Notes under the pieces: model-generated
The model's input: the letters and a program-made list of their open reading frames with translations, nothing else
Database searches by the model: none
Told to the model about the DNA's origin: nothing
In this document: positions 245 to 56,059 of the stretch, one piece after another
How positions within the stretch are numbered: position 1 is the first letter of the stretch
How the letters are laid out: every line of letters begins with the position of its first letter
IMG/VR virus record: IMGVR_UViG_3300033004_000002
Location: 1-56,059 of that record
DNA from: a virus
Taxonomy: Duplodnaviria; Caudoviricetes
DNA length: 56,059 nt
Strand: one strand, 5' to 3'
Program-made: the position numbers and the translations under genes

Positions 245-412
245 TCACTCCGGAGAGACGTAGAACGGCTTCGTCCCGTAGTAGTGCACATAGTGGGGGT
301 ACGGCTCAGACATCAGATCGAAGAGAGCGGTATGGAAAGCTCTCGGAGGAGGCGTGTCGATAGCCCGCTTCAGATCCTTGAATCCGAGGGCGTTCAATGT
401 GCTCAGCGCCAT
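245..412 (-). CDS. Hypothetical protein (MALSTLNALG...), possibly extending to 170 past an internal TGA
   Basis: ATG overlaps the stop of the upstream gene; the frame reopens after the TGA until a TAG at 170-172. Confidence 0.5.
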   Translation of the reverse strand: MALSTLNALGFKDLKRAIDTPPPRAFHTALFDLMSEPYPHYVHYYGTKPFYVSPE

Positions 413-651
413 CAGTAGCCGCCCCCGAGATGCTTCGCTGCCGCCTTCGCCGAGATCGCCCCGCGCTTGATCGCGCGCTTGGCGCGGTCGCCGTCGACAT
501 GCTGTGGCAGCTTCTTCAGCTTCTTGCCCTTCGCGCCCTTGGCGAATTCTTTCCCGACCTTCTTCGGAATCCCAATGGTCGACTTGCCGGCAGCGGCTGC
601 ATGCATCGCCGCGTTTTGCGCCTTCGAGACCGGTTTCGGATAGGGAGGCAT
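412..651 (-). CDS. Small Lys/Ala-rich basic phage protein (MPPYPKPVSKAQNAAMHAAAAGKSTIGIPKKVGKEF...)
   Basis: GGAG upstream of ATG at 651; resembles small basic proteins often found near terminase genes; carries the shared C-terminal KRGxIS tag. Confidence 0.75.
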   Translation of the reverse strand: MPPYPKPVSKAQNAAMHAAAAGKSTIGIPKKVGKEFAKGAKGKKLKKLPQHVDGDRAKRAIKRGAISAKAAAKHLGGGY

Positions 652-716
652 TTCGTTCTCCACGCGACCGCGGAAGGTGACGGATTTGTTGTTGGCGGCG
701 GGCGCGGTCAGAGCCA

Positions 717-911
717 TCAGAACCCGCGCGCGACATGCCACGCCGCCTTGAATGAGGCCATCCGGCCAAATCCAAGTTGGCGGTAGTTCACATAACTATT
801 CCGAAACCGCTCACAGAACGGGCGAAGCCTCACGCGGATCATGCCGTCGGGGCGGCTCATCTCCCGTTCCACTGTCTCGCAATCATCGAGCAACTCGAAG
901 CGAAAGAACAT
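717..911 (-). CDS. Hypothetical protein
   Basis: ORF co-oriented with the operon; GAGGG upstream. Confidence 0.45.
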   Translation of the reverse strand: MFFRFELLDDCETVEREMSRPDGMIRVRLRPFCERFRNSYVNYRQLGFGRMASFKAAWHVARGF

Positions 912-3028: not shown

Positions 3029-3031
3029 CGT

Positions 3032-5046: not shown

Positions 5047-5310
5047 CTAATGCCGGCCGTGAAGACCATATCCCATCTGCACAGAGAAGCGCGGCACACC
5101 ATCGATGCAAAGATGCGTGATGCCGTTCTCCAGATCGATCAGCGAAAACCGCTCGATCTCAACACCGCACTCTCGGAACCGATGAATAGCGGCTTCGATC
5201 GCTTGGATTCGCGCCTCTCGCGCCTGGCGCACAAGGTCGACCGTCAGGCTATGAAAGACCTTTGAGTCAATGACCCCAGGCTCTTCATAAAATCTAGTCG
5301 GCACCTGCAC
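5047..5310 (-). CDS. Hypothetical protein between terS and terL
   Basis: GGAGG upstream; fills the gap. Confidence 0.6.
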   Translation of the reverse strand: MQVPTRFYEEPGVIDSKVFHSLTVDLVRQAREARIQAIEAAIHRFRECGVEIERFSLIDLENGITHLCIDGVPRFSVQMGYGLHGRH

Positions 5311-5743: not shown

Positions 5744-5908
5744 AAGGTGATTCCAAAAGATTCCAACTTGTTCATGTTCCAAAAGATCGCCGCTCGCGCC
5801 GGGGAATGCCGGGATGGATGGACCGACACGAGCGGCAGTCAAAGGGAGGAAACGCCCTGAGAGGGCAGCGATAGCCGCAAGGTGACTACCGCATACCCTA
5901 TGCAAACG

Positions 5909-5937
5909 AAAAAGCCCGGCACTGAGGCCGGGCTCTT
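5909..5937 (-). terminator. Rho-independent terminator in the late leader
   Basis: AGCCCGGC/GCCGGGCT stem followed by a T-run on the minus strand. Confidence 0.8.
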
Positions 5938-5944
5938 GAAGATA

Positions 5945-5991
5945 TGGGGACAATGACCAGCGGAATTACATGGGACACCTGTCAGGTTATT
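5945..5991 (-). repeat. Bipartite site copy A (AATAACC-N26-GGTCATTGTCCCCA)
   Basis: Aligns with copies B-G. Confidence 0.9.
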
Positions 5992-10650: not shown

Positions 10651-10697
10651 TGGGGACAATGTCCAGCGCCGTGCGCTGGGACACCTGTCAGGTTATT
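10651..10697 (-). repeat. Bipartite site copy C; contains the NADAR stop codon
   Basis: Shares 21 nt with copy A; 26-nt spacer. Confidence 0.9.
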
Positions 10698-11241
10698 GTT
10701 GACCGACCTCGCGGCTTCCGCGCAGTTCGGCGCGAATTTCCATCCAGAGCTTGCCGAGCATATTCTGGCCGTCGCGGTTCGGACCCCATCCCCAGAAGTC
10801 ATCCCGCCAACTGTCCTCAATGAGTTCGCGATCGTCGGTCGCGAGGAGCTTGCGGCGCACGTATTCATGCTGGTTCGCTTTCTCGCGCAGTATTTCGCGC
10901 ATGAAGGCAATCTTTTGAAAGTCCCAATCACCAACCTGAAAACGCTGCTCCTGCTGCGCCAACTTGAAGGCATCATGAGCAGATCGTGCATTCTTGACCT
11001 TGCCAGCGATAAGCTGGGCACCGGGCAAATCCGACAACGTAAACCGCAACCAGTGATAAAGATGCTCGCTGGTCTTGAAGGTGAATCCGGACCATTCGAC
11101 CTCGAACGACGAGAAGTTCGAAAGGACATAGAAGTCCTGTTCGTAAAAGAAAACCTGCCGCTCGTTGTCGAGCTTGTGAAACTCCGGAACTGCGGGGTAA
11201 CCGATGACTGCCGACGCGGGCTCAGTGGCGCGGTGATCCAT
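10693..11241 (-). CDS. NADAR (YbiA-like) family protein
   Basis: LSNF...F-T-SEH-Y...K..QH...LLAT...E-S-D-FWG...G-N-LG-LWM-IR motifs. Confidence 0.92.
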   Translation of the reverse strand: MDHRATEPASAVIGYPAVPEFHKLDNERQVFFYEQDFYVLSNFSSFEVEWSGFTFKTSEHLYHWLRFTLSDLPGAQLIAGKVKNARSAHDAFKLAQQEQRFQVGDWDFQKIAFMREILREKANQHEYVRRKLLATDDRELIEDSWRDDFWGWGPNRDGQNMLGKLWMEIRAELRGSREVGQQ

Positions 11242-11959: not shown

Positions 11960-12159
11960 GCTGTCACCCCATCCGGTTCACACACAGGCGTCCCCTTCCC
12001 CTCGCCCCTCTCCCCGTCCCGCCAGAACTCCACCCCATGCACGCGGCCCTCGCGTCCAAACGGATGCAGCGTGACCTTGATGGTGCGGCAGCCGCGCAGG
12101 CATTCGCGCTCGGTCTTGTGCACCATGCGATTGCCGAGCTTGGGCCAACGATGGTTCAT
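11956..12159 (-). CDS. Hypothetical protein
   Basis: ATGA coupling on both sides. Confidence 0.6.
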   Translation of the reverse strand: MNHRWPKLGNRMVHKTERECLRGCRTIKVTLHPFGREGRVHGVEFWRDGERGEGKGTPVCEPDGVTA

Positions 12160-13292
12160 GGGCGGCGCTCCGGCATCGCGTTGTGTTCGACGTCGTCGAG
12201 CAGGCGGCCGGCGCGGGCCTTGCCGACGCGCTCGACGAACGCCGCACCGGCCTCCGGGTAAAGCTCATCGGCCCGCGCGACATGCGGATAAGCCTTGATC
12301 GCCTGCCACCCAGAACGCGGATTTCCCTTGGCCTGCTCCGGCGTCGACGGCGCCCATTCGCCCCATTGCTTGAAGAAGAAGGGCACGCCGGCAGCCTGGC
12401 ACTGGTCGCGCAGCGATCGGTCCCAATCGACATGCATCGGCCGCGCCCTCGGGCCGCTCTCGCCGCCGACGATCACCCAGTCGAGGCGCGGGCCGCAGTT
12501 CGTGGACCAAACGGAATGACTCCCGGTGCCGTCTGCCCGGCGATGTGACCAAGTCCCATCCTCATGAAGATGTTCACGCCGATCACTCCCAGTGAGAACG
12601 TTATATCTCTCCCGAACTGTTTTCCGGTCTGGTACGAAGCCTCGCATTGCCCAGGGAATCGCCGTCAAGTCGATCGGCCCCAGCAGCGGCTCGCCGCTGA
12701 TGAACCGCACCGCTGCTGGCGTCTGCAGCAGCAGCGGAATCCGTTCGTCGGCCTCCTGCTGCCGCTCGGCAGATACACCGAGCCAGACGTTCGGCAGCGG
12801 CCAATTCACTTGCCAGTCGCCGCCATGGTTGATCTTGCTGCCTTCGGGCGTGCCCAGCATTGACCAGATATGGCCGTTGATCGTGTGACGGCTCGTCCTG
12901 ACGCAATAATCCCGCATCCTTCGCGCCCGCTTCGTCAGCACCTGAAACGTATGCTGCGGGCACAACGCCATCACCGCGAAGACGCGATCGATCCATGCAT
13001 CGGGACAATCCTCGTGGAACAGGTCGCTCATCGAGTTGACAAAATACGTGGTCGGTTTCTTCCGCTTCAGCGGCTGCAGCAGCGTTGCTTCCGGTGCCTG
13101 CACCAGCTTTCCGGTCCACAACGCGTTGCCGTTGACGACGCGAGTGGTGCCGTCATAGCGGGAGATGCCCATGGCCTCGTTGCGGGCTGCAGTCTTCATG
13201 GCATAGCAGTTGGTGCAGCCGGGGGGGACGATGGAGCAGCCGACGATGGGATTCCAGACGTGTGACGTCCATTCGATCGAGGTTTTGCTCAT
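12156..13292 (-). CDS. DUF5131 / phage Gp37-Gp68 family (radical-SAM-like)
   Basis: IEWT...WNP-GC-x4-GC-NCYA, FVNSMSDLFH, LTKR, WVIVGGESG, PFFFKQWG. Confidence 0.92.
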   Translation of the reverse strand: MSKTSIEWTSHVWNPIVGCSIVPPGCTNCYAMKTAARNEAMGISRYDGTTRVVNGNALWTGKLVQAPEATLLQPLKRKKPTTYFVNSMSDLFHEDCPDAWIDRVFAVMALCPQHTFQVLTKRARRMRDYCVRTSRHTINGHIWSMLGTPEGSKINHGGDWQVNWPLPNVWLGVSAERQQEADERIPLLLQTPAAVRFISGEPLLGPIDLTAIPWAMRGFVPDRKTVRERYNVLTGSDRREHLHEDGTWSHRRADGTGSHSVWSTNCGPRLDWVIVGGESGPRARPMHVDWDRSLRDQCQAAGVPFFFKQWGEWAPSTPEQAKGNPRSGWQAIKAYPHVARADELYPEAGAAFVERVGKARAGRLLDDVEHNAMPERRP

Positions 13293-13471
13293 GTCGGCAC
13301 CCCGCAATCCGGACACCCATGCAGCCACACCTCGGCAATCTTGCGGACGTGCCAGCCCTCGCGCTTCATCATCGCGCGGGCCTCGTCGAAATCCCTGGTC
13401 CTGGTGTCAAGGACTTCATCGCAGCTGTCGCATTCGATGTGGATGATGCCGCCTTGCTGTCGATCGATCAT
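13289..13471 (-). CDS. Small Zn-finger protein (CDSC...CPDC)
   Basis: Two CxxC motifs; coupled. Confidence 0.7.
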   Translation of the reverse strand: MIDRQQGGIIHIECDSCDEVLDTRTRDFDEARAMMKREGWHVRKIAEVWLHGCPDCGVPT

Positions 13472-13755: not shown

Positions 13756-14205
13756 CTAGAAGTCACCTTCAGCAACTTGCGCACACGGCACCCCCGCCGC
13801 CCGCCAAGCCTTAACCACCCGCGATCGATCATCAAAAACAACCACCGGCTCAAAGCCGTCGGCGCGGACCTGTTCGAGCAGAACGATCTTCAGCACGTCG
13901 TCGTCGCGATGATCGCCGTCCGGGCGCATGTAGAGCCGCAGCGGATAGCGACCGGTATAGGCGCCGTGATCGGACAGCCATTGCGCGGTCTTCTCCCTGC
14001 AGCGCTCCGCGCGGCCCGATACGAAGACGGTCACCAGCTCGCGATCGAGGGCGCGCAGCACGCGGATCATGTGCGGGATCGGCTTGTCGTCGTGACAGAG
14101 ATCGAAATAGGCATCCCATTGCTTGGGTGTCTGTTGAATCAGGTGCAGGCGGTGATCGCCGTTGGCGAGGGTACCGTCGATGTCGAAGATCACGCAGGGT
14201 TTCAT
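13756..14205 (-). CDS. HAD phosphatase (T4 PNK 3'-phosphatase-like)
   Basis: IFDIDGTLA, VSGR, MRP..D.R.D..K, FDDR..VV..WR, QVA-GDF. Confidence 0.9.
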   Translation of the reverse strand: MKPCVIFDIDGTLANGDHRLHLIQQTPKQWDAYFDLCHDDKPIPHMIRVLRALDRELVTVFVSGRAERCREKTAQWLSDHGAYTGRYPLRLYMRPDGDHRDDDVLKIVLLEQVRADGFEPVVVFDDRSRVVKAWRAAGVPCAQVAEGDF

Positions 14206-14207
14206 GA

Positions 14208-14483
14208 TTAGATATTCCGATCCGATCCGCAAAGCATCCGCGCGCGGCGCCAGAATTCATCAGCGCTGACGCGAAAGTTCAGATTGATGTCGTTGTTGTC
14301 GATGGTCACGGTGCCGTCGTCATTGCAGATGATGGCGCCGCGATGGGCGCGCGACGCGTTATCTGCTGCGGCCCACAGAGCTATGAGCGCCGACCCGACA
14401 ATAACGACGATCGCAGCCTGTCTCACAGTCCGTTTGGTGCGGATGATTTCCCATTTCAGCCGGTCCTGCTCGAGCCAGGTCAT
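14208..14483 (-). CDS. Hypothetical membrane-anchored protein
   Basis: One TM segment; coupled. Confidence 0.6.
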   Translation of the reverse strand: MTWLEQDRLKWEIIRTKRTVRQAAIVVIVGSALIALWAAADNASRAHRGAIICNDDGTVTIDNNDINLNFRVSADEFWRRARMLCGSDRNI

Positions 14484-14906: not shown

Positions 14907-15298
14907 GCCGCTTCGCCCTCCTGCTCATCCTCTTCAAAAGGGAAGTCGTCATCATCCCCATCGCCCGAGACCATATCGTCAGGTGTACCCGGCTTCGGTA
15001 GCGTCAGCCGTGACGGCGGCTCCCACGGTTTGTTGCGCGCGAGCACGGTTTCCTCATCGGTCAGGGCGTAGGAGAAGATCGCGGCACCAGAATAGTAGTG
15101 CGTCGTCCAGCCGTGCGCGGCCGGGTCGCCCTTGATCGGCACATCGATGCGCAGCATCTTGGCGCCGAAGCGTTCCTCTTCGCGGGCGCGGCCCCAATGG
15201 CTGCGATGGCCCATGATCTCGACCAGCATCCATTCCCAGCCGGGTTCGGTTGCCGTGGGTTGTGGTTGGGTGATCTGCTCTTGTGCTTCGTTCGTCAT
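14903..15298 (-). CDS. Conserved phage hypothetical protein
   Basis: W-LVEIMGH...GR.REEE.FG.KMLRIDVP pattern; GAGG RBS. Confidence 0.75.
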   Translation of the reverse strand: MTNEAQEQITQPQPTATEPGWEWMLVEIMGHRSHWGRAREEERFGAKMLRIDVPIKGDPAAHGWTTHYYSGAAIFSYALTDEETVLARNKPWEPPSRLTLPKPGTPDDMVSGDGDDDDFPFEEDEQEGEAA

Positions 15299-16878
15299 GC
15301 CGCCTCATCCTCGTTTGAAACGTGCGGAGGCGCGGACTGTGTCCCTACGTCTGAGCCGGCTGCCCCAACCAAGGGCTCCCCCGTCTCGCGTTCGCATAGC
15401 GTGCTGGGGGCCTCGCGAGCCGTACCAGACGCCTCCTCTCTGGGTAATTCTGAACCAGGTGCTTCATTCCCCCACGCATCCCAGCCCGGCCGCGCGCGAC
15501 GCGCGTTCAATTCGATCTTGGGAAGGTTCGGGAAGTGAAATTCCGCATGCTCATATTGCTGGTCCGGCTTCTCGCTATGCTCGCCGACAGGCGCTTCGAA
15601 CAGGCTGCGGAAATGCGCGGTTGCCGGCGGCACGACGTTGCCGCGCACGCAGATCAGGAGAATCTCGTGCTCGCCGGTCACCCAGTAACCGGGGCCACGG
15701 CCGGCGCCGTTGCGCAGCTTGGCCCAGACACGTTGGGTTACATATTTGAAGCCGCGCAGCTCGATGACCCGATGGGCGATGGCCTCGTGGGGGATCGTGG
15801 TCCACATGTAGAGCACACAGTCGTCAGCCAGGCATTTGAAGCGCTCGGCGGTCCGAGCGACGATTTCTTCCGGCGTGTGGGCATCGGCCGCCGTCGGGTA
15901 ATGATTGGAGGGATGCCGGTCCATTCCGGACTCGCGAGACCAGGGTTGATGGTCCCATTCGAAATCCTCGATGGCGACGCCGTAGGTCTTCTCGGACATG
16001 CTCTGCAGCTTGCGGCCGAGATCGGCCTCGCGATCATTGCGGCGCTCTTTCTTCGCGGCCTGTTTTTCGGCGCGGATTTCCTTGATGACGGGGGCCAGCG
16101 CTTTCTTGGCCTCCGGCGTCAGCTTTCCGGTCTCGTCGCGCGGAAGCGCCGCGAGAATGGCTTCCTGTTCTTCAGCTGGCCGGCGGGCGATCTCCTCCGC
16201 GGCCGACGCCACGATCTGACCATCGCGGACCGCTTCGTTCAGTTGCTCGGTACCATGATCGCGGACCACGGCAGCGCTCGCGATCAGGCGCGCGGACACA
16301 TGCCCGCGTTCCGCGAGATCGGCGCGCGTCGACGGGGTTGGTGTTTCGGCTGGAATATCAAGATGCAAATTTGCATCTTGCTGCTGTGGTTGCCGCGGTC
16401 CGCCCCAGCGATATTGCTCATAGGAGGCCATCGCATGCGCCCGCTGCGAGGCCTCGAGGTGCCGCCGGAAGATGTTCTTGCTGATGACGTAGTCGAGCGC
16501 CTCGTCATTGGTGCCGGTGAACTGCTCGCACAGAACCGCCAGATTTCTCTTCCTGCAGGCGCGGTAGCGGTTGCGGCCGTCGAGGATCATGTCCTTATGG
16601 ATGATGACCGGATCGCGTTGGCCGTTGGCCGCAATGTCAGCGGCGAGTTCATTCAGCTCGGTTTCGGACAGCAGCGGGAACAGGCCCGCGAAAGGATGGT
16701 CCTTCAGGCGTTCGTGGCCCGCTTCGAGCGAATAGACCTGATTCACCATCTCCCCCACCCTCGGCACCGCCACGCAGGCCTTGCAGGCCGACGCCTTGCC
16801 GTCCGGCTTGCGCTGGTCGGTCTTGAAATCGTCGAGCGGCTTGGCCTGGTGGCAGCGGCTGCAGGTTTTGGTGGTCAC
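15295..16878 (-). CDS. ParB-like domain + MT-A70-family adenine methyltransferase, N-terminal Zn finger
   Basis: CxxC pairs; HP.A.LFP...ILDGRNR..AC ParB-like block; HY-T, LYMWT, GF-Y..W-K, E.LL...RG, HS-KP, IEL-AR...GWD-WGNE. Confidence 0.88.
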   Translation of the reverse strand: MTTKTCSRCHQAKPLDDFKTDQRKPDGKASACKACVAVPRVGEMVNQVYSLEAGHERLKDHPFAGLFPLLSETELNELAADIAANGQRDPVIIHKDMILDGRNRYRACRKRNLAVLCEQFTGTNDEALDYVISKNIFRRHLEASQRAHAMASYEQYRWGGPRQPQQQDANLHLDIPAETPTPSTRADLAERGHVSARLIASAAVVRDHGTEQLNEAVRDGQIVASAAEEIARRPAEEQEAILAALPRDETGKLTPEAKKALAPVIKEIRAEKQAAKKERRNDREADLGRKLQSMSEKTYGVAIEDFEWDHQPWSRESGMDRHPSNHYPTAADAHTPEEIVARTAERFKCLADDCVLYMWTTIPHEAIAHRVIELRGFKYVTQRVWAKLRNGAGRGPGYWVTGEHEILLICVRGNVVPPATAHFRSLFEAPVGEHSEKPDQQYEHAEFHFPNLPKIELNARRARPGWDAWGNEAPGSELPREEASGTAREAPSTLCERETGEPLVGAAGSDVGTQSAPPHVSNEDEAA

Positions 16879-17102
16879 ACCCGCCCCCGCATCTGCTTGA
16901 TCTTCGCCCTCACCACCTTCGGCCACAGCACGATCATCACCGCGATGGCGAGCGCGACGAAGCCGCCCGGCGGCAGCCGGCCGAAGCGGGCGCAGTAGCG
17001 CGACAGCGCGAAATCGATGTAGGCGGATGGTTCGCACAGCATCCAGACCAGCGCCCCGATCAGGAGATAGACGAGCAGCCATGCAACGGGATCGAGCAAC
17101 AT
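16875..17102 (-). CDS. Small membrane protein
   Basis: Two TM segments; GGGAG upstream. Confidence 0.65.
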   Translation of the reverse strand: MLLDPVAWLLVYLLIGALVWMLCEPSAYIDFALSRYCARFGRLPPGGFVALAIAVMIVLWPKVVRAKIKQMRGRV

Positions 17103-17233
17103 GCGAAACACTCCCGGAAATCGAGACAAAGAGGCTCACGCGTTGCGATGATGCGACGCGCGGGCAGGCGTTGGGACTTTGGGTTGACGCAAACGGAACG
17201 CGGGTGATGCTTTACGCGTAGGAAAACGAAGGT

Positions 17234-28543: not shown

Positions 28544-28720
28544 ATGACTCTCGAAATCCACTGGGGAAAGGTTGCTCGTCATCTCAAGGATGACGCCGAG
28601 CAAATCAGAGAACGCGCGATAACCGCGTTTCACGGGGACATCGCTACGCAGAAGGAAATGCAGACCCGCGCCGCGATCCTGGAATCGTTGGCGAACGCAC
28701 TTTGGTACGGCCTAGAGTGA
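28544..28720 (+). CDS. 58-aa hypothetical protein (MTLEIHWGKVARHL...), below the ORF-track cutoff
   Basis: AGGAG RBS; GTGA overlap with the integrase start. Confidence 0.6.
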   Translation: MTLEIHWGKVARHLKDDAEQIRERAITAFHGDIATQKEMQTRAAILESLANALWYGLE

Positions 28721-30399
28721 AACGCGCCGCGATCTACGCCCGCTTCTCAAGCGACCTACAGTCCGACCGCTCGATCGAGGACCAGGTCACGCTCTGTCAG
28801 GCGAAGGCCGCCCGCGACGGCTTCAAGATCGTGGCGACCTTCTCCGACCGCGCCCGCTCCGGCGCCTCGATCCACGGCCGCGCCGGCATTGCCGAGCTGC
28901 TCGCCGCCGCCAAGGCCGGCCAATTCGACGTCCTGATCGTCGAGGAGCTCGACCGCCTGTCGCGCTCGCAGGCCGACCTTGCCTCGATCTATGACCGGCT
29001 GACTTTCGTCGGCATCGACATCCTGACCGTGCATGGAGGGGCGGGCCGCACCGACCAGATCCAGGTCGGCATCCGCGGCATCGTCGGCGCCCTGTTCCTG
29101 ACCGACCTGGCGCACAAGGTCCGCCGCGGCGCCGCCGGCAATATCCGGCTGGGCAAGCACGCCGGAGGTCTCGCCTATGGCTACGACACCACGCCGGGCC
29201 AGCCAGGCGCGTGGACCATCAACGAGGAACAGGCGGCCATCGTGCGGCGAATCTTCACAGCCTATCTCGCCGGCGAGCGGACGCCGGCAATCGCGCGATC
29301 GCTCAATGCCGATGGCATCAAGCCGCCGCGCGGCAGCTATTGGCAGCCGGGCGCTTTGACCGGATCAAACAACCGCCACAACGGCATCATGGGCAACGAA
29401 ATCTATTGCGGCCGTCTGGTTTGGAATCGCGTGCGCATGATCAAGGATCCGGAGACCGGAAAGCGCGTGTCGCGGCCGAACCCGGAAACCGAGTGGCAGC
29501 GGGCTGAGGTGCCGCATCTGATGATCGTGCCGCCGGAAGTCTTCGACCAGGCCGCGGCGCTGAAGGCCTCCCGCGGCAATCTGGCGCCGACGCACCGCCG
29601 CGCGCCGAAGGCGCTGCTCTCCGGCCTGCTCAAATGCGGCAGCTGCGGCGGCGGCATGTCGATCAAGGGCCGCGACCGCGGCGGCGTGCGCATCGTCTGC
29701 ACCACGTTCCACAATGCCAAGCTTTGCGCCAACAACCGGACCTATTACCTGCATCACGTCGAGGAGACCGTGCTGTCGGGCCTGCGGCGCCACCTGGTCG
29801 ATCCGCGCGCGATCAAGCACTTCCTCAAATGCTACCACGACGAGCGCAAACGGCTGGTAGTCGAGGCGTCCAGGGAGCGGCCGGATCTGGAGCGGCGGCT
29901 TGGCGAGGCCACCCGCAAGCTCGCCAGGCTCACCGAGGCCATGCTTGACAGCGATGCGCCCGTGGCTTCATTCACCACGAGGATCGCCGAGCTCGAGCGG
30001 GAGAAAGCCGAGATCGAGGCCAGGCTCGCGCAAATGTCGGAACCGGTCCGGGTGATCGCCCTTCATCCGGCAGCCCAAGAGCACTATCTCAAGGTCGTGA
30101 ATGATCTCGCCGCGGCGGTTCGGGACCGCGCCGACCGCAGCGCGATGGCAGCGCCGGTCCGGGACCTGGTCGACAGCGTGATCGTGCATCGGACCTTGCC
30201 GGGCGAGCCGATCCGGCTCACGGTCAACGGGCGCCTGGCGGCGCTGATCGGGCAGCCGGTGTTTCCGCAAGGTTCTCTGTCGGGGGTCAAGTTGGTAGCG
30301 GGAGCCCGCTACGGGATAGAACCCCGTGTGGATGTACCTGTTTTTGCTATGGAGTTTTTTGGCGCGCGAAAAATGGGTCGTACGGCCCCGCACCCATAG
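28717..30399 (+). CDS. int: Large serine recombinase (integrase)
   Basis: AIYARFSS..Q..SI.DQ, D.A.SG, LDRLSR; recombinase domain; Zn ribbon (LLKCGSCG...C...C); coiled coil. Confidence 0.95.
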   Translation: MKRAAIYARFSSDLQSDRSIEDQVTLCQAKAARDGFKIVATFSDRARSGASIHGRAGIAELLAAAKAGQFDVLIVEELDRLSRSQADLASIYDRLTFVGIDILTVHGGAGRTDQIQVGIRGIVGALFLTDLAHKVRRGAAGNIRLGKHAGGLAYGYDTTPGQPGAWTINEEQAAIVRRIFTAYLAGERTPAIARSLNADGIKPPRGSYWQPGALTGSNNRHNGIMGNEIYCGRLVWNRVRMIKDPETGKRVSRPNPETEWQRAEVPHLMIVPPEVFDQAAALKASRGNLAPTHRRAPKALLSGLLKCGSCGGGMSIKGRDRGGVRIVCTTFHNAKLCANNRTYYLHHVEETVLSGLRRHLVDPRAIKHFLKCYHDERKRLVVEASRERPDLERRLGEATRKLARLTEAMLDSDAPVASFTTRIAELEREKAEIEARLAQMSEPVRVIALHPAAQEHYLKVVNDLAAAVRDRADRSAMAAPVRDLVDSVIVHRTLPGEPIRLTVNGRLAALIGQPVFPQGSLSGVKLVAGARYGIEPRVDVPVFAMEFFGARKMGRTAPHP

Positions 30400-47504: not shown

Positions 47505-48668
47505 TTAGTTGTCGGCGACCGCCGCGAAGAAGCCGGTGAACGTACCCCAGTCCTTGAAGTTGCCGGCGGCGTTAAGCTTGGCGATCTTGCCAACTCCGTA
47601 AGCCATCTTGATGCCAACACCACGGATGAACTGATAGTCGTCCTCTTTCCGGAAGGTATTGGTCGGCATCTGACCCCAGCACCAGGCGACCGCCTGCTGA
47701 CCGCAGAGAAATGCAGGTGCAACCTGCCCCGCGCCGGAGCCGGCGTTGGTGTAGAACACCGGCAGCCGCAGCGAGAGTTCGGGAATCTCCCGGATGATCA
47801 CGCCGTTGTACAAAAGATCGCCGTCGACGAAGATCGGGTTCTTCAGGTAGCCCTGCTGTTCCCTTGCGCGCGAGTTCTGGTTCGCGGTCTTGATGTCGGT
47901 GTCTTGCTGCGCGTCGCGGAACTGCTCCTGACCGACGAACAGCACGAACCACTCGGTGCCGTTCTCCTTCAGCTTGAACGGACGGATGCGCGGGTTGGCC
48001 TTCTTCGCGCTCCGCTTCATCCGGTTGACCAGCGCGCCCGACAGCGTCATGGCGGCGGTGATGTTGGCCATCGAGGCCGCGAAGTTGCCCGCGACGAGGT
48101 TCGCCGTATTGCCCGAACCGATCAGGATGCGGTCGGCGTTATCGGTGATCCAGGTGTTGCGCTGGGCTGCGGTGGCCGCATCGAACAGGATCCCGTTGAC
48201 GCGCTGGCCGAGCGCGGAGCCGAGACCGGCAGGTGCAGCCTGCGAGGGAATCGCATAGAAACCGTCGCAGATTTCGTCGCGCTGCTTTTCCTGGCCCCAG
48301 TCGACCAGTTTCGGCTTGAACTCGCCGAACAGGTCGATCGAGGATTTGTTTTCATCGGCATTATTGACCGCGACCGCGTGCCGCGCCCAGTCGATCCAGA
48401 AGCGCGTGCCCTGGTTGTCAACCTGTTCTTCGTTGCCGACCAGCGGGCCGACGCCGACGCCTTGCGCATTGAGACGGGCAGACAACGGAATGTTGATCTG
48501 CTCGCCGCCCATCTTGCCGCCCTTGTCGAGGTCGGTGATCACGCGAATGATCGCGTTCTCGGACGGGCCCATGTAGGGCGAAAAGAGATTCTCGCGGACG
48601 TATTCCCGGAAGATCTGCTTGCGGAATACGACAAGCTTGTTGTTGCCAGAGGTGGTCGTGAGCGCCAT
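47505..48668 (-). CDS. Major capsid protein (N4-gp56/DUF4043-like)
   Basis: F.PYMG....II....L...GE.I.I.L...L.GNEE; NPIF.....YNGV.I.E; L.G.QA...WG; DY.F..G. Confidence 0.9.
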   Translation of the reverse strand: MALTTTSGNNKLVVFRKQIFREYVRENLFSPYMGPSENAIIRVITDLDKGGKMGGEQINIPLSARLNAQGVGVGPLVGNEEQVDNQGTRFWIDWARHAVAVNNADENKSSIDLFGEFKPKLVDWGQEKQRDEICDGFYAIPSQAAPAGLGSALGQRVNGILFDAATAAQRNTWITDNADRILIGSGNTANLVAGNFAASMANITAAMTLSGALVNRMKRSAKKANPRIRPFKLKENGTEWFVLFVGQEQFRDAQQDTDIKTANQNSRAREQQGYLKNPIFVDGDLLYNGVIIREIPELSLRLPVFYTNAGSGAGQVAPAFLCGQQAVAWCWGQMPTNTFRKEDDYQFIRGVGIKMAYGVGKIAKLNAAGNFKDWGTFTGFFAAVADN

Positions 48669-50332: not shown

Positions 50333-50776
50333 TTACTGCGCGAGGTAGCCGACGTTCAGCGTGATCCCGGTCGCGGCGTTGGTGTTGTCGTTGTCGGCTT
50401 GGCCGGCGACGATGCAGAAGCCGATGCCGGCCGTGAAGCGTGTGTCATCGAAGCCGATGGAAATGACGCCAGTCGAGGTCGTGGTCGGCGGCAAGGGAAT
50501 GGTGACCTGCGGCGTATCGGTGCCGCAGGTCGGCGCAGTCGCCTTGTTGTAGAACTTCAGGTAATAGATCGTCGCCGTGTTGTTGTAGACGATGATCCAT
50601 TTCAGGATGTTCTGGCCAGCGCCCGAGACCAGCGTCGAATTGTTGGACGCCTGCGACAGGTAATGAAACGGGATCGCCTGCAGCGACTGCGCCCGCGCGT
50701 CGGCCGACGCAAACGCGACAACTGCCGCAAGAAGCGCAGCGGCGACTCGCATCAGCTTTCCATTGATTGACATCAT
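50333..50776 (-). CDS. Secreted-type beta-sandwich virion accessory protein
   Basis: Signal ...DARA|Q; YLKFYNKATAPT.GTDTP, F..GI. Confidence 0.78.
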   Translation of the reverse strand: MMSINGKLMRVAAALLAAVVAFASADARAQSLQAIPFHYLSQASNNSTLVSGAGQNILKWIIVYNNTATIYYLKFYNKATAPTCGTDTPQVTIPLPPTTTSTGVISIGFDDTRFTAGIGFCIVAGQADNDNTNAATGITLNVGYLAQ

Positions 50777-51663
50777 TGCCGATACCCCCATGCCGAGACG
50801 GACACCACACCGCCGGAGCCTGGAGCTGCCGAAATCACTGCAATAGCCTGATTGGCACCAGAGGCAGGAATGCAGGCCCTGCCGAACGGTGGTTCAGTGA
50901 TTCCGATGCCACTCGCGAGAGGTGCGGTCCATTGCGTGAAATTCATCGTTCCGGTTATTGTGCCCGTGACCGTCGCATTGCCCGTTGCAGCCGCGGTCGC
51001 ATTCGCACGGATCGAAAATCCGCAAATATATGTCGTGGTGGTCGAACTCGCCGCCAGCGTTGCAGTGGTCGCGCCCGTCGTTCCCGTAGCCGATGCGGTA
51101 ATCGGAATGGCACCCAGCGGATATAACGACGTCAGCGTGACCGGAAAGTTGTTGTCGGCCATTACGGAGGAGATCGCTGTCGATCCCAGCATGGCAACGT
51201 TGACGCTGCCGCTCGCAATGTTGGTTCCGACGATCCGGATCGCCGACATGCCGGCGGCATTGATTTGGAAGATACCATTGGCTGTGATGGCCGTAACGGA
51301 GGCGCCGCTCGTCAAGGAGACGGCCGTCGTTACACCCCACGTCGCGCTGGCTGCGCCGACCTGGCCATAATCGACCGATGCCTGCACCTGCAACGCGCCG
51401 GTCCACGTCCCCGTGACGGAAAGACCAACCGTCGATTGTCCGTCGACGGGAATGACGACAGAATCGTTGGTCGACGCGATCGACCGGGACGTCGCAGCCC
51501 CACTGCATGGCACAGCCTGGGACTGACTGTTCAGGCACATGACGACTTTGCCGTCGACCTGAGAACCGCCCGGTGTCGTAAACGAGCTTTGGGCCCGCGC
51601 GGAAAATGCTGCGAGCGAGAACAGCAGCGAGAGTGTGACAGCGCGGATGATACCCAAGATCAT
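50773..51663 (-). CDS. Secreted-type S/T/A-rich virion accessory protein
   Basis: Signal ...SARA|Q; two beta-rich domains; ATGA coupling to the portal. Confidence 0.78.
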   Translation of the reverse strand: MILGIIRAVTLSLLFSLAAFSARAQSSFTTPGGSQVDGKVVMCLNSQSQAVPCSGAATSRSIASTNDSVVIPVDGQSTVGLSVTGTWTGALQVQASVDYGQVGAASATWGVTTAVSLTSGASVTAITANGIFQINAAGMSAIRIVGTNIASGSVNVAMLGSTAISSVMADNNFPVTLTSLYPLGAIPITASATGTTGATTATLAASSTTTTYICGFSIRANATAAATGNATVTGTITGTMNFTQWTAPLASGIGITEPPFGRACIPASGANQAIAVISAAPGSGGVVSVSAWGYRQ

Positions 51664-53660
51664 GGCATTGCCTGCGGCTGTGGTTGCGGCAACGGTTGCG
51701 GACCGCCCGCCCTGCCAGCTTGCGGCGGCTGCTGCCCGGCCTGCGCAATGCGATGCGCATCGAACAGCGTGTCACGGACATATTCGGCTGCGGCCAGATG
51801 CAGGTTGGTCTGGGCGTGCCCGACGCCGGCCCGTTTCTCTTCCGCCGTGGCCGCGGCCTGGTCGGCGTTGGCTAGCAGCTTCTGGGTTTCGGCCGCGGTC
51901 TTGGCATTGCGGCCCGCGACGCCTTCGAGCTGCAGCCGCTTGACCAACTCGGCCATCGGATCGGGCGGTTGCGGCTTCGGCGCGAGCAGCTGCAGCGCGC
52001 GATCCTTTTCCGAGCGCGGCATGCTCGGGTCCATCTCGATCAGCACCTGCGGTGGGATCGAGCCCGGCGGCAGCTGCCACAACTTGTTGGAGAGTTCCTC
52101 CATCATCGAGATCAGGTCCGGGCCCTGGTCGAGCACGATATCGACGTCGAGTGCGCCCACCGCGTTGACGATGACGGGGCGGCCCATTTCGTCGACATCG
52201 ACGCCGTTCAACTGGATGAACTGCGCCAGCTTGTCGTTGGAGTTGACCCGGATCCAGCGCTCCGCGGTCCAGTGCCGCTGAATCGCGTTCCAGATCGAGC
52301 GATAGATATCGAGCTTCCAGGAGCGATGCGCCAGCACGAACGGCCCCAGTTCGGCCATGCCTGGCTGCCGCAACAGTTCGATCGCCTTGCCGGAAATGTT
52401 GGTGATGCCGCCCGGCCCGCCCATCGCCGCAAGATCGGCATTGGCGAAGCCGTCGAGCTCTTTCTTCGCGTCGTCCGTGAAGGTCGAGAACACGGCGATT
52501 TCCGGCTTGGAATCGTTGATCTCAAATTTCTTTTGCGGATTGACCTCGATCACGCCGTCATGCCGCGCCGCTTCCCGCCGCGCGGTTTCGACGTCGTCGA
52601 CGGCGCCCTTCTCCAGGATCAGCCGGCGCGAGTTGGCCAGCGCCAACATCTTGGACTTGCCCTGGTTGAGCGCATCCTGCGGCCCCTTGAAGTTGCGAAC
52701 GAAGGAATAGCGGTCGCCGTCATGATCGACCATCGGGCCGAACATCTTGAACGAGGACTCGCTGTTGCCGCGGTCATCGGCGAATGGCGAGAGGCCCTGA
52801 TCCAGAAGCACGTTGGCGCAGTAGAACGCCCAGCACCATTTGCCCCGATGCTTGTACCAGTGTTCGATCATGCGCACGCGGCGTTGTGCGAGGATCATCC
52901 ACTTGATCTCGCGATCGGGATTGGTGGTCAGATCGCTGTCGCCCTGGAACAGGCCTTCGAGGTCGTCGCGGCGCTCGGGAAACATTTCCGCCGCGGCCTC
53001 GACGTCCATCCACTTCATGATGCCTTCGTAGCGGACATCCTTGAAGTTGAAGGCGTAGGAGCGCGGGTCATAGAAATACTCGTCGCCGATGACCGGGTGC
53101 AGCCCGATATCAGGGTCGCCCTTGTCGCCCTGGCGCAGGATCAGTTGTACGCCGCCGATCGCCTCGATGCCCACTTGCAGAAGGCAGGACGGCTCAATCG
53201 TGGTCTTGAACTGGTTGGCGTCGCAGACGTAGCGGATCGACTGCGTGGCGATCTCGGCTCCGGCTTCGCTCTTCGGGTTGCGCCCCATCGCCTTGGGGTC
53301 GCAGCGCATGCGCTCGACCTGGCCGACGATGCCATTGATCTTCCGTCCGACGCGGTTCCATATCTGTTCTGGCTGATGCCGCAGCCGCAACACCTTGCGC
53401 TGCTCGGCGGTCAGCTGCGCGCCGTGGTAGTAGCGGCGGGAGTCCTTCTGTTCCTCGATCTCCTCGACCTTGCCGCCGAGATAGTCCTGCAGCTGGCGAT
53501 GCAGCGTGATGACAGGAAGGAACTGCCCGCTGTCGTCCTCGCCGACCGTGTTGTCGCGCTTGTCCTCGTCCGGATTGTTGTCGCCGCGCACAAGCGGCGC
53601 CATCCGCGCGCGATCGGCGCGCGCCATGGTGGCGGACAAGGCTGCGTCAGACAGGGGCAT
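51660..53660 (-). CDS. Portal protein (P22-like)
   Basis: YYHG.Q.T....L..R.QP...NR...KIN...G; YDPRS; V.N..GPQD..N; SG.AI; N.V..LDVDI..D.GP. Confidence 0.92.
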   Translation of the reverse strand: MPLSDAALSATMARADRARMAPLVRGDNNPDEDKRDNTVGEDDSGQFLPVITLHRQLQDYLGGKVEEIEEQKDSRRYYHGAQLTAEQRKVLRLRHQPEQIWNRVGRKINGIVGQVERMRCDPKAMGRNPKSEAGAEIATQSIRYVCDANQFKTTIEPSCLLQVGIEAIGGVQLILRQGDKGDPDIGLHPVIGDEYFYDPRSYAFNFKDVRYEGIMKWMDVEAAAEMFPERRDDLEGLFQGDSDLTTNPDREIKWMILAQRRVRMIEHWYKHRGKWCWAFYCANVLLDQGLSPFADDRGNSESSFKMFGPMVDHDGDRYSFVRNFKGPQDALNQGKSKMLALANSRRLILEKGAVDDVETARREAARHDGVIEVNPQKKFEINDSKPEIAVFSTFTDDAKKELDGFANADLAAMGGPGGITNISGKAIELLRQPGMAELGPFVLAHRSWKLDIYRSIWNAIQRHWTAERWIRVNSNDKLAQFIQLNGVDVDEMGRPVIVNAVGALDVDIVLDQGPDLISMMEELSNKLWQLPPGSIPPQVLIEMDPSMPRSEKDRALQLLAPKPQPPDPMAELVKRLQLEGVAGRNAKTAAETQKLLANADQAAATAEEKRAGVGHAQTNLHLAAAEYVRDTLFDAHRIAQAGQQPPQAGRAGGPQPLPQPQPQAMP

Positions 53661-53663
53661 GGA

Positions 53664-53918
53664 TCAGAAAATACCTGGGAGAGGTTGATCAGGCGCAGGG
53701 CCGTCAACGTCGGCATCGCACCACATCGACGGATAGACGTGGCGGGTTGAACCGCGCATCTTCCACACCGACTCGGTCGCACTCCACTGCGCGACGACGC
53801 ATTCATGCGCCACGTCGAAGGGCCGGCCGCGCTCGTCGGTCTTGTAGGACGACGACGGCAGGAACACCCAGAGCGGGCGGTCGCGGGGTGCGTCGTGCGA
53901 GGGTGCCCAGACAGTCAT
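53664..53918 (-). CDS. Small DUF551-like protein (MTVWAPSHDAPRDRP...)
   Basis: W.P...AP.D...P..W pattern; ATGA coupling. Confidence 0.65.
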   Translation of the reverse strand: MTVWAPSHDAPRDRPLWVFLPSSSYKTDERGRPFDVAHECVVAQWSATESVWKMRGSTRHVYPSMWCDADVDGPAPDQPLPGIF

Positions 53919-54184
53919 GCGACCGGCGTCATCTTGTCGAGATCGGCGGTTTTCCCGCCGAGCTTCGCCATAGCCTTGTCGGAGATCATGCCTCGCTTGG
54001 CGAGATGCGCAGCGCGCTGCGCCTCGTCCTGCTTTTCCTTGGCCATGACGGCAGCATGCTTGCGCACGTGCTTCATCAGCTCCGGATTCTTGAGGTGCTC
54101 GCCGGCGCGCAGGATGGTGTGCGTGGCGTCGCGGACTTCCCATTCGTCGTACTTCTTCTGTTTCGCCGAGGTCGACTTTGCCAT
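53915..54184 (-). CDS. Small basic protein with the KRGMISDKA tag
   Basis: WE...A..T..RA.E...P.LM..V; shared C-terminal motif. Confidence 0.78.
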   Translation of the reverse strand: MAKSTSAKQKKYDEWEVRDATHTILRAGEHLKNPELMKHVRKHAAVMAKEKQDEAQRAAHLAKRGMISDKAMAKLGGKTADLDKMTPVA

Positions 54185-54206
54185 TCCGATGCCCTCTGCC
54201 ATGGGA

Positions 54207-55544
54207 TCACCCCTTCGCCATCATCTTGTCGAACTGCCGGTCGGAGATCTTCCCCGCCTTGTGCAGCCGCTCGGCTTCCTTCTGCTCTTTGGAGAGCTTC
54301 TTTTCCGGACCGAGCACCTGCTCGAGCTGCTCGCGGGCGATGTCCAGCGCATCGACGGGCTTGTCCAAGAGATGCCCCTCGACCAGTTCGCAGATGCGCT
54401 TGCACTCCGCGATCGCTTCATCAGGCGTGCTGCCCAGCGCAACCACGGCGCCAATTTCGGCGCAGCCGGTCCATTGCGGGATGACATAGTACTCGCCCTC
54501 AATGATGCAGTAGTTGCGGAGCTTGACGTTGTCGCGGACCTCGTCCGGAAACGAGACGTGCATCCAGTTCTGGTCCGCCCAGTCCGAGATCAGGAGCACC
54601 TCGGCGCCCCACTTCGCCTGGAACTCCGGCTCGATCACGATGCCTTCGGAGCCGTACCAGATGGCTTCCGCCATGTTGGTCATCAGGAGCTGATAGAGCT
54701 CGTTCGGCGGCGAGCCGGCGCGGCAGCAGGGATCGATCAGGTAGGCCTTGCCGTCCTTGGTGCAGCGGACTTCGGTGGAGATGAAGCCGCGATAGCCATA
54801 CTTCTTCAGCGCGGGCGCGAGCTTTTCGTTGACACTGCGGACCTGCTCCGGAAGTTCGGACCAGCGCACCGTCTTCATCAGGTAGGCTTCGTCCTTGACC
54901 TCGACCCCGGTCATGGCCGCCTTGGGAAACTGGCCGTCGATGGTGTAGCCGTCGTAGCCGGTCTCGACCGCGTCCGGGATATCCTGCTCGACCGTGAACT
55001 CCATGATCTTGGTGTAGGCGCCGAGGTTGTGGTCGAGCTCGTCGAGCCGCACCTCGACCTTGGGATAATCCTTGGCGCCGAAGGTCTCCATGTCGCCGCG
55101 GGTGCCGGAGATCTTCACCCACTGGTTATCATTGGCCTTGAGGTACTTGCGCAGCGCATCAAGCCCGGTGACGACCTTGTAATGGCCGATGTCGATGCCG
55201 AGCTTTCTCGACACCTCCTTCGACGCCGGCCGGTCGATCTCCAACTCTGCGCCGGAGCGGCAGCCCCACACGCGCTTGCCTTGCGCGACCAGGAAGTCCT
55301 GCAGGTCGCCCTCATAGACGTCGGGGAAGATCCACACGTCTATGTCGTCATAGAACGACCACGGCGAATCGATCCGCTCGACGCCGTCGATACCACTGCC
55401 GATCAGGCGCGCATTCGACTTCGGCATGCCGCTCGTCCACGGCACGTAGTAGAGCACGCGACCGAAGTGCTTCGCCAGCGTTTCGGCCATGGCCGTGAAG
55501 ATGCCGTTGTCCCAGACGAGGCAGCACTTCGAGCGCAGGTTCAT
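54207..55544 (-). CDS. PurD-like ATP-grasp ligase
   Basis: G..VWG.....LE.DR...K, WVK, VE.G, G.E.K, GYRGF...E, Y.ID..CR.G.PP; start MNLRSK by ATGA coupling. Confidence 0.82.
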   Translation of the reverse strand: MNLRSKCCLVWDNGIFTAMAETLAKHFGRVLYYVPWTSGMPKSNARLIGSGIDGVERIDSPWSFYDDIDVWIFPDVYEGDLQDFLVAQGKRVWGCRSGAELEIDRPASKEVSRKLGIDIGHYKVVTGLDALRKYLKANDNQWVKISGTRGDMETFGAKDYPKVEVRLDELDHNLGAYTKIMEFTVEQDIPDAVETGYDGYTIDGQFPKAAMTGVEVKDEAYLMKTVRWSELPEQVRSVNEKLAPALKKYGYRGFISTEVRCTKDGKAYLIDPCCRAGSPPNELYQLLMTNMAEAIWYGSEGIVIEPEFQAKWGAEVLLISDWADQNWMHVSFPDEVRDNVKLRNYCIIEGEYYVIPQWTGCAEIGAVVALGSTPDEAIAECKRICELVEGHLLDKPVDALDIAREQLEQVLGPEKKLSKEQKEAERLHKAGKISDRQFDKMMAKG

Positions 55545-55924
55545 TTCAGATTCAACTCCGAGTAGAACTGCCGTCCCTCGCCGCGCTCCACCGCCATCTC
55601 GAACAGGCTCGCCGTGCGATCGACAATGAACTGATCGAACGGCCTGCACGAGCAGATGAACAGATACGCGCCGCGATGGTCTGGCCATGTGTCCAGCGCG
55701 AGAAAGGAATCCGTGATCGGCATCACGGCCGTGCGGCCGTTGCCGCCCTTGCCGTGCAGCGGATAGGTCCAGAGCGCGTGGTCGCCGACCGCTGTCATGC
55801 CGATCGCGTCCGTTAGGGCCTGCAGGAATTCCACGAGGCGCGGCGCGCCGATATCCTGCTCCATCCGCAGCGTGACGCCGAAGGCGTGCATGCGCTCGCC
55901 GAGGACGAGATCGGGGAAGCCCAT
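55541..55924 (-). CDS. S-adenosylmethionine-decarboxylase-like (pyruvoyl) protein
   Basis: IGMT...G.T...ITDS.L.L.TWPD..AY..I.SC.PFD versus SpeD G-x-T-x-x-x-x-L-x-E-S-H-x-S-x-H-T-W-P-E...D-x-F-T-C. Confidence 0.78.
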   Translation of the reverse strand: MGFPDLVLGERMHAFGVTLRMEQDIGAPRLVEFLQALTDAIGMTAVGDHALWTYPLHGKGGNGRTAVMPITDSFLALDTWPDHRGAYLFICSCRPFDQFIVDRTASLFEMAVERGEGRQFYSELNLK

Positions 55925-55932
55925 CAGTCTTC

Positions 55933-56059
55933 GACCTCATCCGACGAAAGCCGCGCCAGAAACCCTATCGCGTTCGTTGACCCGTCCCGCCGCAATCCAG
56001 GCGTCAACGGTTCATCGAATGGCCGCCGGGTGAACCCGAGCTTCCGCTCGCCGTCGCGC
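55933..56059. repeat. 127-bp terminal direct repeat (copy 2)
   Basis: Identical to 1-127. Confidence 0.97.

Follow-up and report, generated by a model that had tools for sequence, protein, structure and literature searches.

A putative pyruvoyl decarboxylase gene linked to a PurD-like ATP-grasp gene in the head module of tailed phages

Pathways that combine a decarboxylase with an amide ligase include PanD/PanC in pantothenate synthesis, MfnA/MfnD in methanofuran synthesis, where MfnD is a tyramine-glutamate ligase, and BtrK/BtrJ in butirosin synthesis. Of these, PanD belongs to the pyruvoyl enzymes, and MfnD and BtrJ belong to the ATP-grasp superfamily. Here we describe two overlapping phage genes, one resembling a pyruvoyl decarboxylase and one resembling an ATP-grasp ligase, in the IMG/VR virus record IMGVR_UViG_3300033004_000002. 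The whole stretch analyzed, called the window below, is the complete record; it is 56,059 bases long, bears direct terminal repeats, and assembled as a circle, and its source is a temperate tailed phage. As a comparison from general background, the gene pair is like the three pathways in its logic, in which a decarboxylase makes or finishes an amine and an ATP-dependent ligase joins it to a carboxylate. In contrast to the phage pair, none of the three is a viral pathway or is tied to genes for virion assembly, and the likeness is at the superfamily level. The two genes, referred to below as the decarboxylase and the ligase, and their junction are as follows.

55541..55924, minus strand: P0002, 127 amino acids, a putative pyruvoyl proenzyme with the fold of class 1b S-adenosylmethionine decarboxylase (AdoMetDC)
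54207..55544, minus strand: P0001, 445 amino acids, an ATP-grasp enzyme with the PurD fold, comprising core residues 1-410 and a C-terminal tail
55541..55544, minus strand: ATGA overlap of the decarboxylase-like stop and the ligase start, read directly from the sequence

Each protein was compared with its closest described relatives. P0001 has the full-length four-domain ATP-grasp architecture of PurD (2yw2, 1gso, 2qk4), and it aligns with PurD at the motifs LE-x-x-(K/R) and (E/D)-x-x-x-R-x-G. It differs from PurD in having V-x-D-N-G-x-F at the N-terminal strand-loop, where we take the PurD signature to be glycine-rich, in its extra C-terminal tail, and in its head-module context. P0002 shares with class 1b SpeD (PF02675) and with the derived arginine (SpeDA) and ornithine (SpeDC) decarboxylases the fold, a Ser after an acidic residue, and a Cys 20 residues farther on. 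It differs from all three in having Asp in place of His68, in its threshold Pfam score, and in its tie to an ATP-grasp gene of the head module. Parts of two papers (Li et al. 2023; PMC9992855, PMC10407285) describe neofunctionalized SpeDA and SpeDC that, like P0002, are phage-encoded and have no spermidine synthase as a partner. The closest viral parallels to the ligase were ATP-grasp open reading frames (ORFs) of Aquificae viruses (BK013345-BK013347), which carry the annotation phosphoribosylaminoimidazole carboxylase or phosphoribosylamine-glycine ligase. These also lie near the portal gene inside the structural module but, unlike the window ligase, have no C-terminal tail.

The word ATP-grasp was absent from the searched text of PMC9992855 and PMC10407285, and the words ligase, carboxylase, purine, and ATP-grasp were absent from the main text of the Aquificae virus paper (PMC7689252). 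A search of the literature, supplements not included, for pyruvoyl or phage/portal together with ATP-grasp found no description of the pair or of the ligase family. The superfamilies are known and the logic of a decarboxylase plus a ligase is familiar, but the family, the pairing, and the setting are undescribed.

Since many conserved homologues were found for both P0002 and P0001, the two are real genes. The GC content at codon positions 1, 2, and 3 was 0.64, 0.44, and 0.85 for P0002 and 0.60, 0.38, and 0.89 for P0001. At the junction, ctgaaATGAacc, the stop of the first gene and the start of the second share 4 bases, as expected from the original prediction, made from the sequence alone, that the genes are translationally coupled through ATGA. 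The same prediction had assigned a pyruvoyl-type AdoMetDC fold to P0002 and a PurD-like ATP-grasp fold to P0001, and the Protein Data Bank (PDB) matches of both structure models, described below, agreed with it. A complex prediction for P0001 with P0002 gave a score of 0.00 and a mark of 0.32 and was uninformative either way.

The linkage of the two genes was examined in a gene-neighborhood survey, a check that had been named beforehand. With the ligase as bait, 80 viral loci were collected and their ORFs searched with profiles; 7 had no upstream sequence, leaving 73 informative loci. The window type of decarboxylase lay upstream on the same strand in 43 loci and a second type in 7, and 23 had neither. 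A decarboxylase was thus present upstream in 50 of the 73 informative loci, it came first in every one of these (50/50), and the gap was at most 60 bases or the genes overlapped in 32 of the 50 pairs. When the decarboxylase was the bait, 40 loci were collected, many on contigs common to the first set, and 37 of them had at least 700 bases of downstream sequence. The ligase followed in 36 of these 37. In the other, L127, the decarboxylase-like gene (2989-3372) lies after a 746-amino-acid portal-sized ORF and before small basic ORFs and an acidic ORF, which was read as scaffold-like; these neighbors were judged by size and composition only. Pairing in 50/73 and 36/37 loci is far beyond chance. 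The survey thus found strong linkage, the opposite of the unlinked state that had been named as refuting the original prediction.

The linkage is asymmetric, in that the decarboxylase is much more dependent on the ligase than the ligase is on it. The ligase forms the conserved core, to which the decarboxylase is an optional addition. In a quick maximum-likelihood tree of 76 ligases, rooted at the midpoint and built without rows under 380 residues, the first (window) decarboxylase type fell on both sides of the root, and the presence and absence of a decarboxylase on this tree require at least 10 changes, either losses or gains. No decarboxylase-ligase fusion was found when P0002 was compared with longer proteins, which is weak evidence.

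The P0001 family had no counterpart in Pfam (E up to 0.1) or PHROG. Its structure was modeled with high confidence from 74 diverse relatives, with a predicted local distance difference test score (pLDDT) of 96.1 and a predicted template modeling score (pTM) of 0.92. In a Foldseek search of the PDB, ranks 1-13 were all glycinamide ribonucleotide (GAR) synthetases, with template modeling scores (TM) of 0.61-0.71 and 14-17% identity over about 430-465 columns, followed by biotin carboxylases, PurK, and PurT. The four PurD domains (N, B, A, and C) were matched over the full length. The family profile, run against all PDB sequences, hit five PurD sequences with E from 3.4e-10 to 1.5e-4, the C-domain region included; the single-sequence match to PurD 2yw2 was weak (E 0.079). 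In the BFVD viral structure library, the best TM by query for the ligase model was 0.44, and no full-length relative was found among the named viral proteins. Matches of the ligase profile to cytochrome c oxidase subunit 4 (E about 0.005) were read as chance, and the fold search gave no support to the label 'RNase H-like HicB family nuclease' that some homologues carry. P0001 is a PurD-like ATP-grasp protein by fold and descent.

P0001 is not a GAR synthetase, however. The PurD equivalog model TIGR00877 scored 17 bits against a cut-off of 288, and none of the Pfam domains GARS_N, GARS_A, and GARS_C was found in P0001 at E up to 0.1. In the HMMER alignment to 2yw2, a 10-residue gap in P0001 faces the kgpntggmg loop, which we take to be the substrate-loop signature of PurD. 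This conclusion was reached because P0001 fails the curated score, has no loop aligned with kgpntggmg, is accompanied by no other purine gene, and sits in the head module. The residues E102, R149, D198, E215, K217, D271, and R275 were invariant in the 74 diverse ligases, and K144, E186, and E258 were kept in at least 90% of them. By analogy with other ATP-grasp enzymes, these conserved residues are presumably nucleotide-binding, metal-binding, and acyl-phosphate-stabilizing.

P0002 reached the Pfam AdoMet_dc model (PF02675) barely at threshold, scoring 25.4 bits where the cut-off is 25; the six-frame search gave 25.3. Its model, built from an alignment of 44 relatives, had a pLDDT of 92.3 and a pTM of 0.86, and its five best PDB matches were class 1b AdoMetDCs of Thermotoga maritima and Aquifex aeolicus (TM 0.57-0.66). 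The next structural matches were to the AdoMetDC-like non-catalytic N-domain of spermine synthase. A phmmer search of the PDB also returned voltage-sensor phosphatases (E 0.009-0.045), which were rejected as chance since the fold search and the profile indicate AdoMetDC.

The motif of P0002 reads ITD-S-FLALDTWPDH. In the profile alignment with the A. aeolicus proenzyme (2iii), E-S fell on E-S, L-D-T-W-P-D on I-H-T-W-P-E, and C-S-C on Y-T-C. The predicted cleavage site is Asp72-Ser73, with Ser73 corresponding to S63 of T. maritima. Asp78 occupies the place of the processing His (H68), and Cys93 that of the catalytic Cys (C83), 20 residues past the Ser as in 2iii. Conservation was counted in 51 copies, comprising the window and the 50 loci, of which 49 sequences are distinct. 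The predicted pyruvoyl Ser was kept in all 51 and the catalytic Cys in 50, the sole exception being a truncated ORF. At the processing-His position there were 43 Asp, 6 His, 1 Glu, and 1 Leu. The original prediction had singled out D-S-F and LDTWPD as departures from E-S-H and IHTWPE. Both are present in P0002, but D-S is a minor local variant, because the residue preceding the Ser is Glu in 46 of the 51 copies and the family consensus is E-S-F. As judged from these alignments, the true family-wide departure from AdoMetDC is the change of the processing His to Asp.

In parts of PMC10407285, H68 is called essential for self-processing (T. maritima numbering), S63, H68, and C83 are expected to be conserved in SpeD and its arginine and ornithine decarboxylase derivatives, and Gln, Thr, Phe, and Tyr are named, without positions, as diagnostic residues of the conserved central region. 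Because His is replaced by Asp here, the P0002 family appears from its sequences to be a further offshoot of the AdoMetDC family. A tblastn search with P0002 of 50,697 GenBank phage records gave no match. The second decarboxylase subfamily occupies the same slot in its 7 loci and has the canonical His, with the motif P-L-I-E-S-G-I-Q-I-H-T...D-I-Y-C-C. It scored 62.7 bits on Pfam AdoMet_dc and has the full Ser/His/Cys triad. HHalign related the second type to the first with 92% probability, and its His fell on Asp78.

The pair was originally placed ahead of the portal gene, and it does lie between the terminase and portal genes. Followed through the circular junction, the minus strand carries TerS and TerL, then a Wzy-like membrane protein and small ORFs, then the decarboxylase-like gene with the ATP-grasp gene behind it, and finally a 95-amino-acid ORF and the portal. 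The features of this module and of the junction are as follows.

5294-5953: TerS, upstream of the pair on the far side of the 127-base terminal repeat
3415-5037, minus strand: large terminase subunit (TerL), a context gene upstream (phrog_979 E 3.4e-25; PF04466)
412..741, minus strand: small basic protein with tail motif KRGAISAKAAAKHLGGGY, upstream of the pair and beyond the circular junction
1-127 and 55933-56059: terminal direct repeat, exact over 127 bases, the junction of the circular assembly
54210..54305, minus strand: C-terminal tail of the ligase, about residues 414-445, modeled as two short helices joined at G-K-I-S
53915..54202, minus strand: 95-amino-acid basic protein with tail motif KRGMISDKAMAKLGG, starting 4 bases past the ligase stop
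51660-53660, minus strand: P22-like portal protein (PF16510 E 1.7e-82; phrog_156 E 1e-86), 547 bases downstream of the pair
47505-48668: major capsid protein

The end copy of the terminal repeat begins at 55933, 9 bases upstream of the decarboxylase start codon. An ORF of 67-69 amino acids, a putative gene, spans the repeat and terminates in TGATG with that start codon.

The arrangement TerL, small protein, decarboxylase, ligase, small protein, portal recurred in closer relatives. Many of the 80 loci are short; a portal was found in 44 of them, the 95-amino-acid type of protein in 37, the upstream small type in 31, and TerL in 17. In L062 the ligase gene overlaps the portal gene (phrog_1216). 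Very large proteins are encoded near the ligase in the distant loci L048 and L062, and some of them have matches to DarB-like, transglycosylase-type, or minor-head PHROGs. In both Aquificae virus genomes inspected, the ligase homologue is two genes after the portal.

The tail of the ligase, about its last 30 residues, is confined to closer relatives, and G431 and S434 are invariant in 25 of them; the helices of the P0001 model span residues 419-429 and 435-444. A hidden Markov model (HMM) of the tail alone was run against 441 window ORFs, and its best non-self matches were the small basic protein at 412-741 (E 0.0017) and the 95-amino-acid ORF (E 0.13), which has no Pfam family. Relatives of the latter lie between the ligase and the portal in 37 of the 80 loci, and relatives of the former are upstream of the ligase in 31. 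Among 4713 ORFs of the 80 loci, the same HMM matched 48 distinct small ORFs at E up to 0.01, with 19 upstream and 29 downstream of the ligase. The common motif, about 20 residues near the C-terminus, reads roughly L-A-K-x-G-x-I-S-x-K-x-x-x-K (L004-L052 and others). It has no conserved acidic residue that would mark the tail as a substrate of the ligase, and it may serve as a docking peptide common to these proteins.

The ligase family is large. An exhaustive search of 1.84 billion representatives gave 1251 clusters at 50% identity with E up to 0.001, and 745 with E up to 1e-30. Intein-size inserts of about 340-360 residues were found in 10 of the best 150 ligase representatives (P0170, P0186, P0197, P0198, P0199, P0211, P0260, P0277, P0281, and P0293), and the three inserts tested showed LAGLIDADG or intein signatures. 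They occur at four sites, about residues 150, 196-201, 218-224, and 273-274, in or beside invariant motifs, which fits an enzyme needed by the phage.

Other partners accompany the ligase elsewhere. An N-terminal HAD-type phosphatase domain (D-x-D-x-T) is fused to it in 5 of the best 150 representatives (P0191, P0214, P0229, P0239, and P0255), one of which is without its start, and P0267 has an N-terminal acylphosphatase domain (PF00708 E 6e-14). Among the loci collected there was none for P0267 and one for P0229. A stand-alone HAD_PNKP-type phosphatase (PF25109 E 4e-31) is encoded in the early region of the window at 13756-14232 on the minus strand; as it is only weakly similar to the ligase-fused HAD domains (best E 0.007), it was not counted as a member of the module. 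P0219 ends in a small C-terminal domain with an H-E-x-x-E motif. The same domain is a separate gene beside the ligase in 13 of the 80 loci, 7 of which also have a decarboxylase; examples are L051:4537-4998, L073:4603-4977, L081:6290-6697, and L084:7261-7650. This HExxE protein of about 125-150 amino acids also carries P-G-D-D-P-x-A-P-Y, belongs to no Pfam family, and is not encoded in the window. An atlas model of it was weakly similar to SprT-like and ImmA/IrrE-like zinc peptidases (TM 0.52-0.57), which is a lead.

Close relatives of the ligase were found in Bradyrhizobium sp. YR681 and other Rhizobiales, and a profile scan of genome contigs gave 4 loci. L085 is a prophage relative in the cultured strain YR681. 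In the prophage relative L088, on the Bradyrhizobium oligotrophicum S58 strain E20 chromosome, the ligase and TerL are each split into two overlapping ORFs, as if frameshifts had arisen while the prophage decayed, and the locus has no decarboxylase gene. Among the 50,697 GenBank phage records, the ligase matched only the three Aquificae viruses BK013345-BK013347, at 23-30% identity.

The analysis established the folds and the coupling of the genes, together with their synteny, the asymmetry of their linkage, and the conservation of residues of catalytic type. Enzymatic activity, the order of the two steps, the substrates, the target, and the location are inferred, as is the chemistry of the original prediction, in which an amine would be made and then attached to a protein, a peptide, or a small molecule. 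The reading we favor, tentatively and at somewhat less than an even chance, is that an optional decarboxylase supplies an amine to an ATP-grasp amide ligase acting in head assembly, with the product staying with the head. The two genes would form a late enzyme cassette of the head module. P0001 would be a catalytically competent ligase of PurD lineage that no longer acts as a GAR synthetase and that, like other ATP-grasp enzymes, would use ATP to convert a carboxylate to an acyl phosphate before coupling it to an amine. The system would have this ligase as its conserved core, encoded beside the portal in very different phages. P0002 would be a self-processing pyruvoyl-type decarboxylase that turns an amino-acid-type substrate into the primary amine for the ligase. 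We propose that the decarboxylase would be dispensable where the host pool of amine suffices, which could account for its repeated loss. The ligase and the two flanking small basic proteins would dock through their common helix-turn-helix tail on one partner, which could be the procapsid, the scaffold, or the portal. Given the shared tail, the product would end up on or in the head.

Several observations weigh against this proposal. The 23 of 73 ligase loci without a recognized decarboxylase indicate that the ligase has a job independent of one, and beside the ligase of the Aquificae viruses neither a decarboxylase-like nor an HExxE gene was detected. The partners seen elsewhere, namely the HAD phosphatase, the acylphosphatase, and the HExxE protein, are not obviously amine suppliers. 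One decarboxylase locus, L127, has no ligase. With Asp at the processing-His position of P0002 and most of its relatives, processing is not assured, and the two decarboxylase subfamilies diverge at the TWP(D/E) positions and may yield different products. Finally, Cys273 of P0001, which is variable among relatives, is aligned with the position where ATP-grasp enzymes usually have the Asn of their E-x-N metal site.

Another possible explanation, unlikely but the most probable of the alternatives, is that the steps run in the reverse order, with the ATP-grasp enzyme first ligating an amino acid or other carboxy-amine to an acceptor and the pyruvoyl enzyme then decarboxylating the ligated product. 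Phosphopantothenoylcysteine synthetase/decarboxylase and BtrJ/BtrK of butirosin synthesis ligate and then decarboxylate in this way. If the substrate were the ligase product, a decarboxylase would be expected almost never to occur without a ligase, as was found (36/37), and phosphatase, acylphosphatase, and putative metallohydrolase partners would also fit the trimming of a product. The position of the decarboxylase gene in front of the ligase in 50/50 loci points the other way, although gene order is weak evidence. According to parts of PMC9992855 and PMC10407285, the characterized enzymes of the AdoMetDC family also act on free S-adenosylmethionine (SAM), arginine, or ornithine.

It is fairly improbable that the two functions are independent, so that P0002 would be a polyamine auxiliary of the SpeD, SpeDA, or SpeDC type for DNA packaging and the ATP-grasp protein an unrelated neighbor among the late genes. 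Overlap or near-contact in 32 of the 50 pairs and a ligase in 36 of 37 decarboxylase loci argue against mere neighborhood, as does the occupation of exactly the same slot by two diverged decarboxylase subfamilies. The genome also has no spermidine synthase: no match to PF01564 was obtained in six frames of the complete genome, with a control that was positive in 10 of 14 reference genomes. As no purine enzyme was found among the 37 window ORFs scanned with Pfam, the original remark that neither a spermidine synthase nor other purine genes were recognized stands. The change from His to Asp departs from the S63/H68/C83 pattern expected of SpeD, SpeDA, and SpeDC in parts of PMC10407285. Independent functions would nevertheless fit the loss or gain of the decarboxylase at least 10 times while the ligase was retained, and L127, where a decarboxylase adjoins a portal-sized gene with no ligase. 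Phage homologues of AdoMetDC making decarboxylated SAM, agmatine, or putrescine are documented in parts of PMC9992855.

We give a low probability to a non-enzymatic P0002, which would be an unprocessed subunit or adaptor of the ligase with the AdoMetDC fold, like the non-catalytic N-domain of spermine synthase. That domain provided the next-best structural matches, the Pfam score was merely at threshold, and the processing His is Asp in 43 of 51 copies. A scaffold would not need Ser73 and Cys93, however, which are kept in essentially all copies across deep divergence, and in the His-type subfamily that fills the same slot the triad is complete.

Similarly improbable is a role in counter-defense, in which the ligase, with or without the decarboxylase, would be loaded into the head through its tail, delivered with the DNA, and alter or deplete a host metabolite such as SAM or a signaling molecule. 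Portal-adjacent genes for head-carried enzymes are a known theme, as with MuF-type toxins, T4 Alt, and P1 Dar. The sharing of the ligase tail with the small basic proteins encoded around it could be explained in this way, as could the position of the gene beside those for very large proteins in L048 and L062, with their DarB-like, transglycosylase-type, or minor-head matches. The decarboxylase has no such tail, though, and a 50-kDa globular enzyme of four domains would be awkward cargo for ejection. Lastly, that P0001 is simply a phage PurD serving as a purine auxiliary is very improbable: although PurD is its best structural and only convincing sequence relative and a few database copies are labeled phosphoribosylamine-glycine ligase, the failed curated score, the low identity, the missing GARS domains and loop, the lack of any other purine gene, and the conserved head-module position all speak against it.

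The rest of the window was surveyed as well. A 395-amino-acid multi-pass membrane protein encoded between TerL and the pair gave a sub-threshold match to Wzy_C (O-antigen ligase/polymerase), with 28.7 bits against a cut-off of 31.7, and is likely a lysogenic-conversion moron. Two proteins encoded between the portal and the scaffold, where such content is unusual, have signal-peptide-like N-termini and Ser/Thr/Ala-rich bodies, and no family was found for either in the Pfam and PHROG scans. The early region encodes a 614-amino-acid protein with ParB-like, MT-A70 methyltransferase, and zinc-finger/HNH-like matches, along with DUF5131, NADAR, and DUF2303 proteins. The coordinates are as follows.

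1358-2545, minus strand: Wzy-like membrane protein
50333-50791 and 50773-51663, minus strand: the two proteins with signal-peptide-like N-termini
28702-30399: serine integrase
15295-17139, minus strand: 614-amino-acid early-region protein
12156-13328, 10693-11241, and 9449-10252, minus strand: DUF5131, NADAR, and DUF2303 proteins

The ligase family is large, and its nearest clusters are 96-100% viral according to an automatic atlas, which is a lead only. It sits in the otherwise well-charted stretch from terminase to portal, yet neither Pfam nor PHROG includes a model of it, and it lacks cultured representatives save three Aquificae virus genome assemblies. Two features argue for an important role in the virion or in packaging: the inteins found in conserved motifs of the family, and its distribution, which extends from Bradyrhizobium-type phages to viruses of hyperthermophiles. 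The pair is directly testable, with a prophage relative in cultured Bradyrhizobium sp. YR681 and two small proteins that have high-confidence models. In a bolder and, in our estimate, unlikely version of the proposal, head assembly in this large group of phages would include an ATP-driven step of covalent modification, in which the tail-docked ligase amidates carboxylates of head-internal proteins or of a packaged component with an amine made on site by the decarboxylase. If true, amidation would give the inside of the head a different charge or stability, either ahead of DNA packaging or while it proceeds. If the pair does make and attach an amine, it would represent a new branch of AdoMetDC that processes with Asp instead of His, and it would add a new enzymatic reaction to head morphogenesis or to the condensation of DNA.

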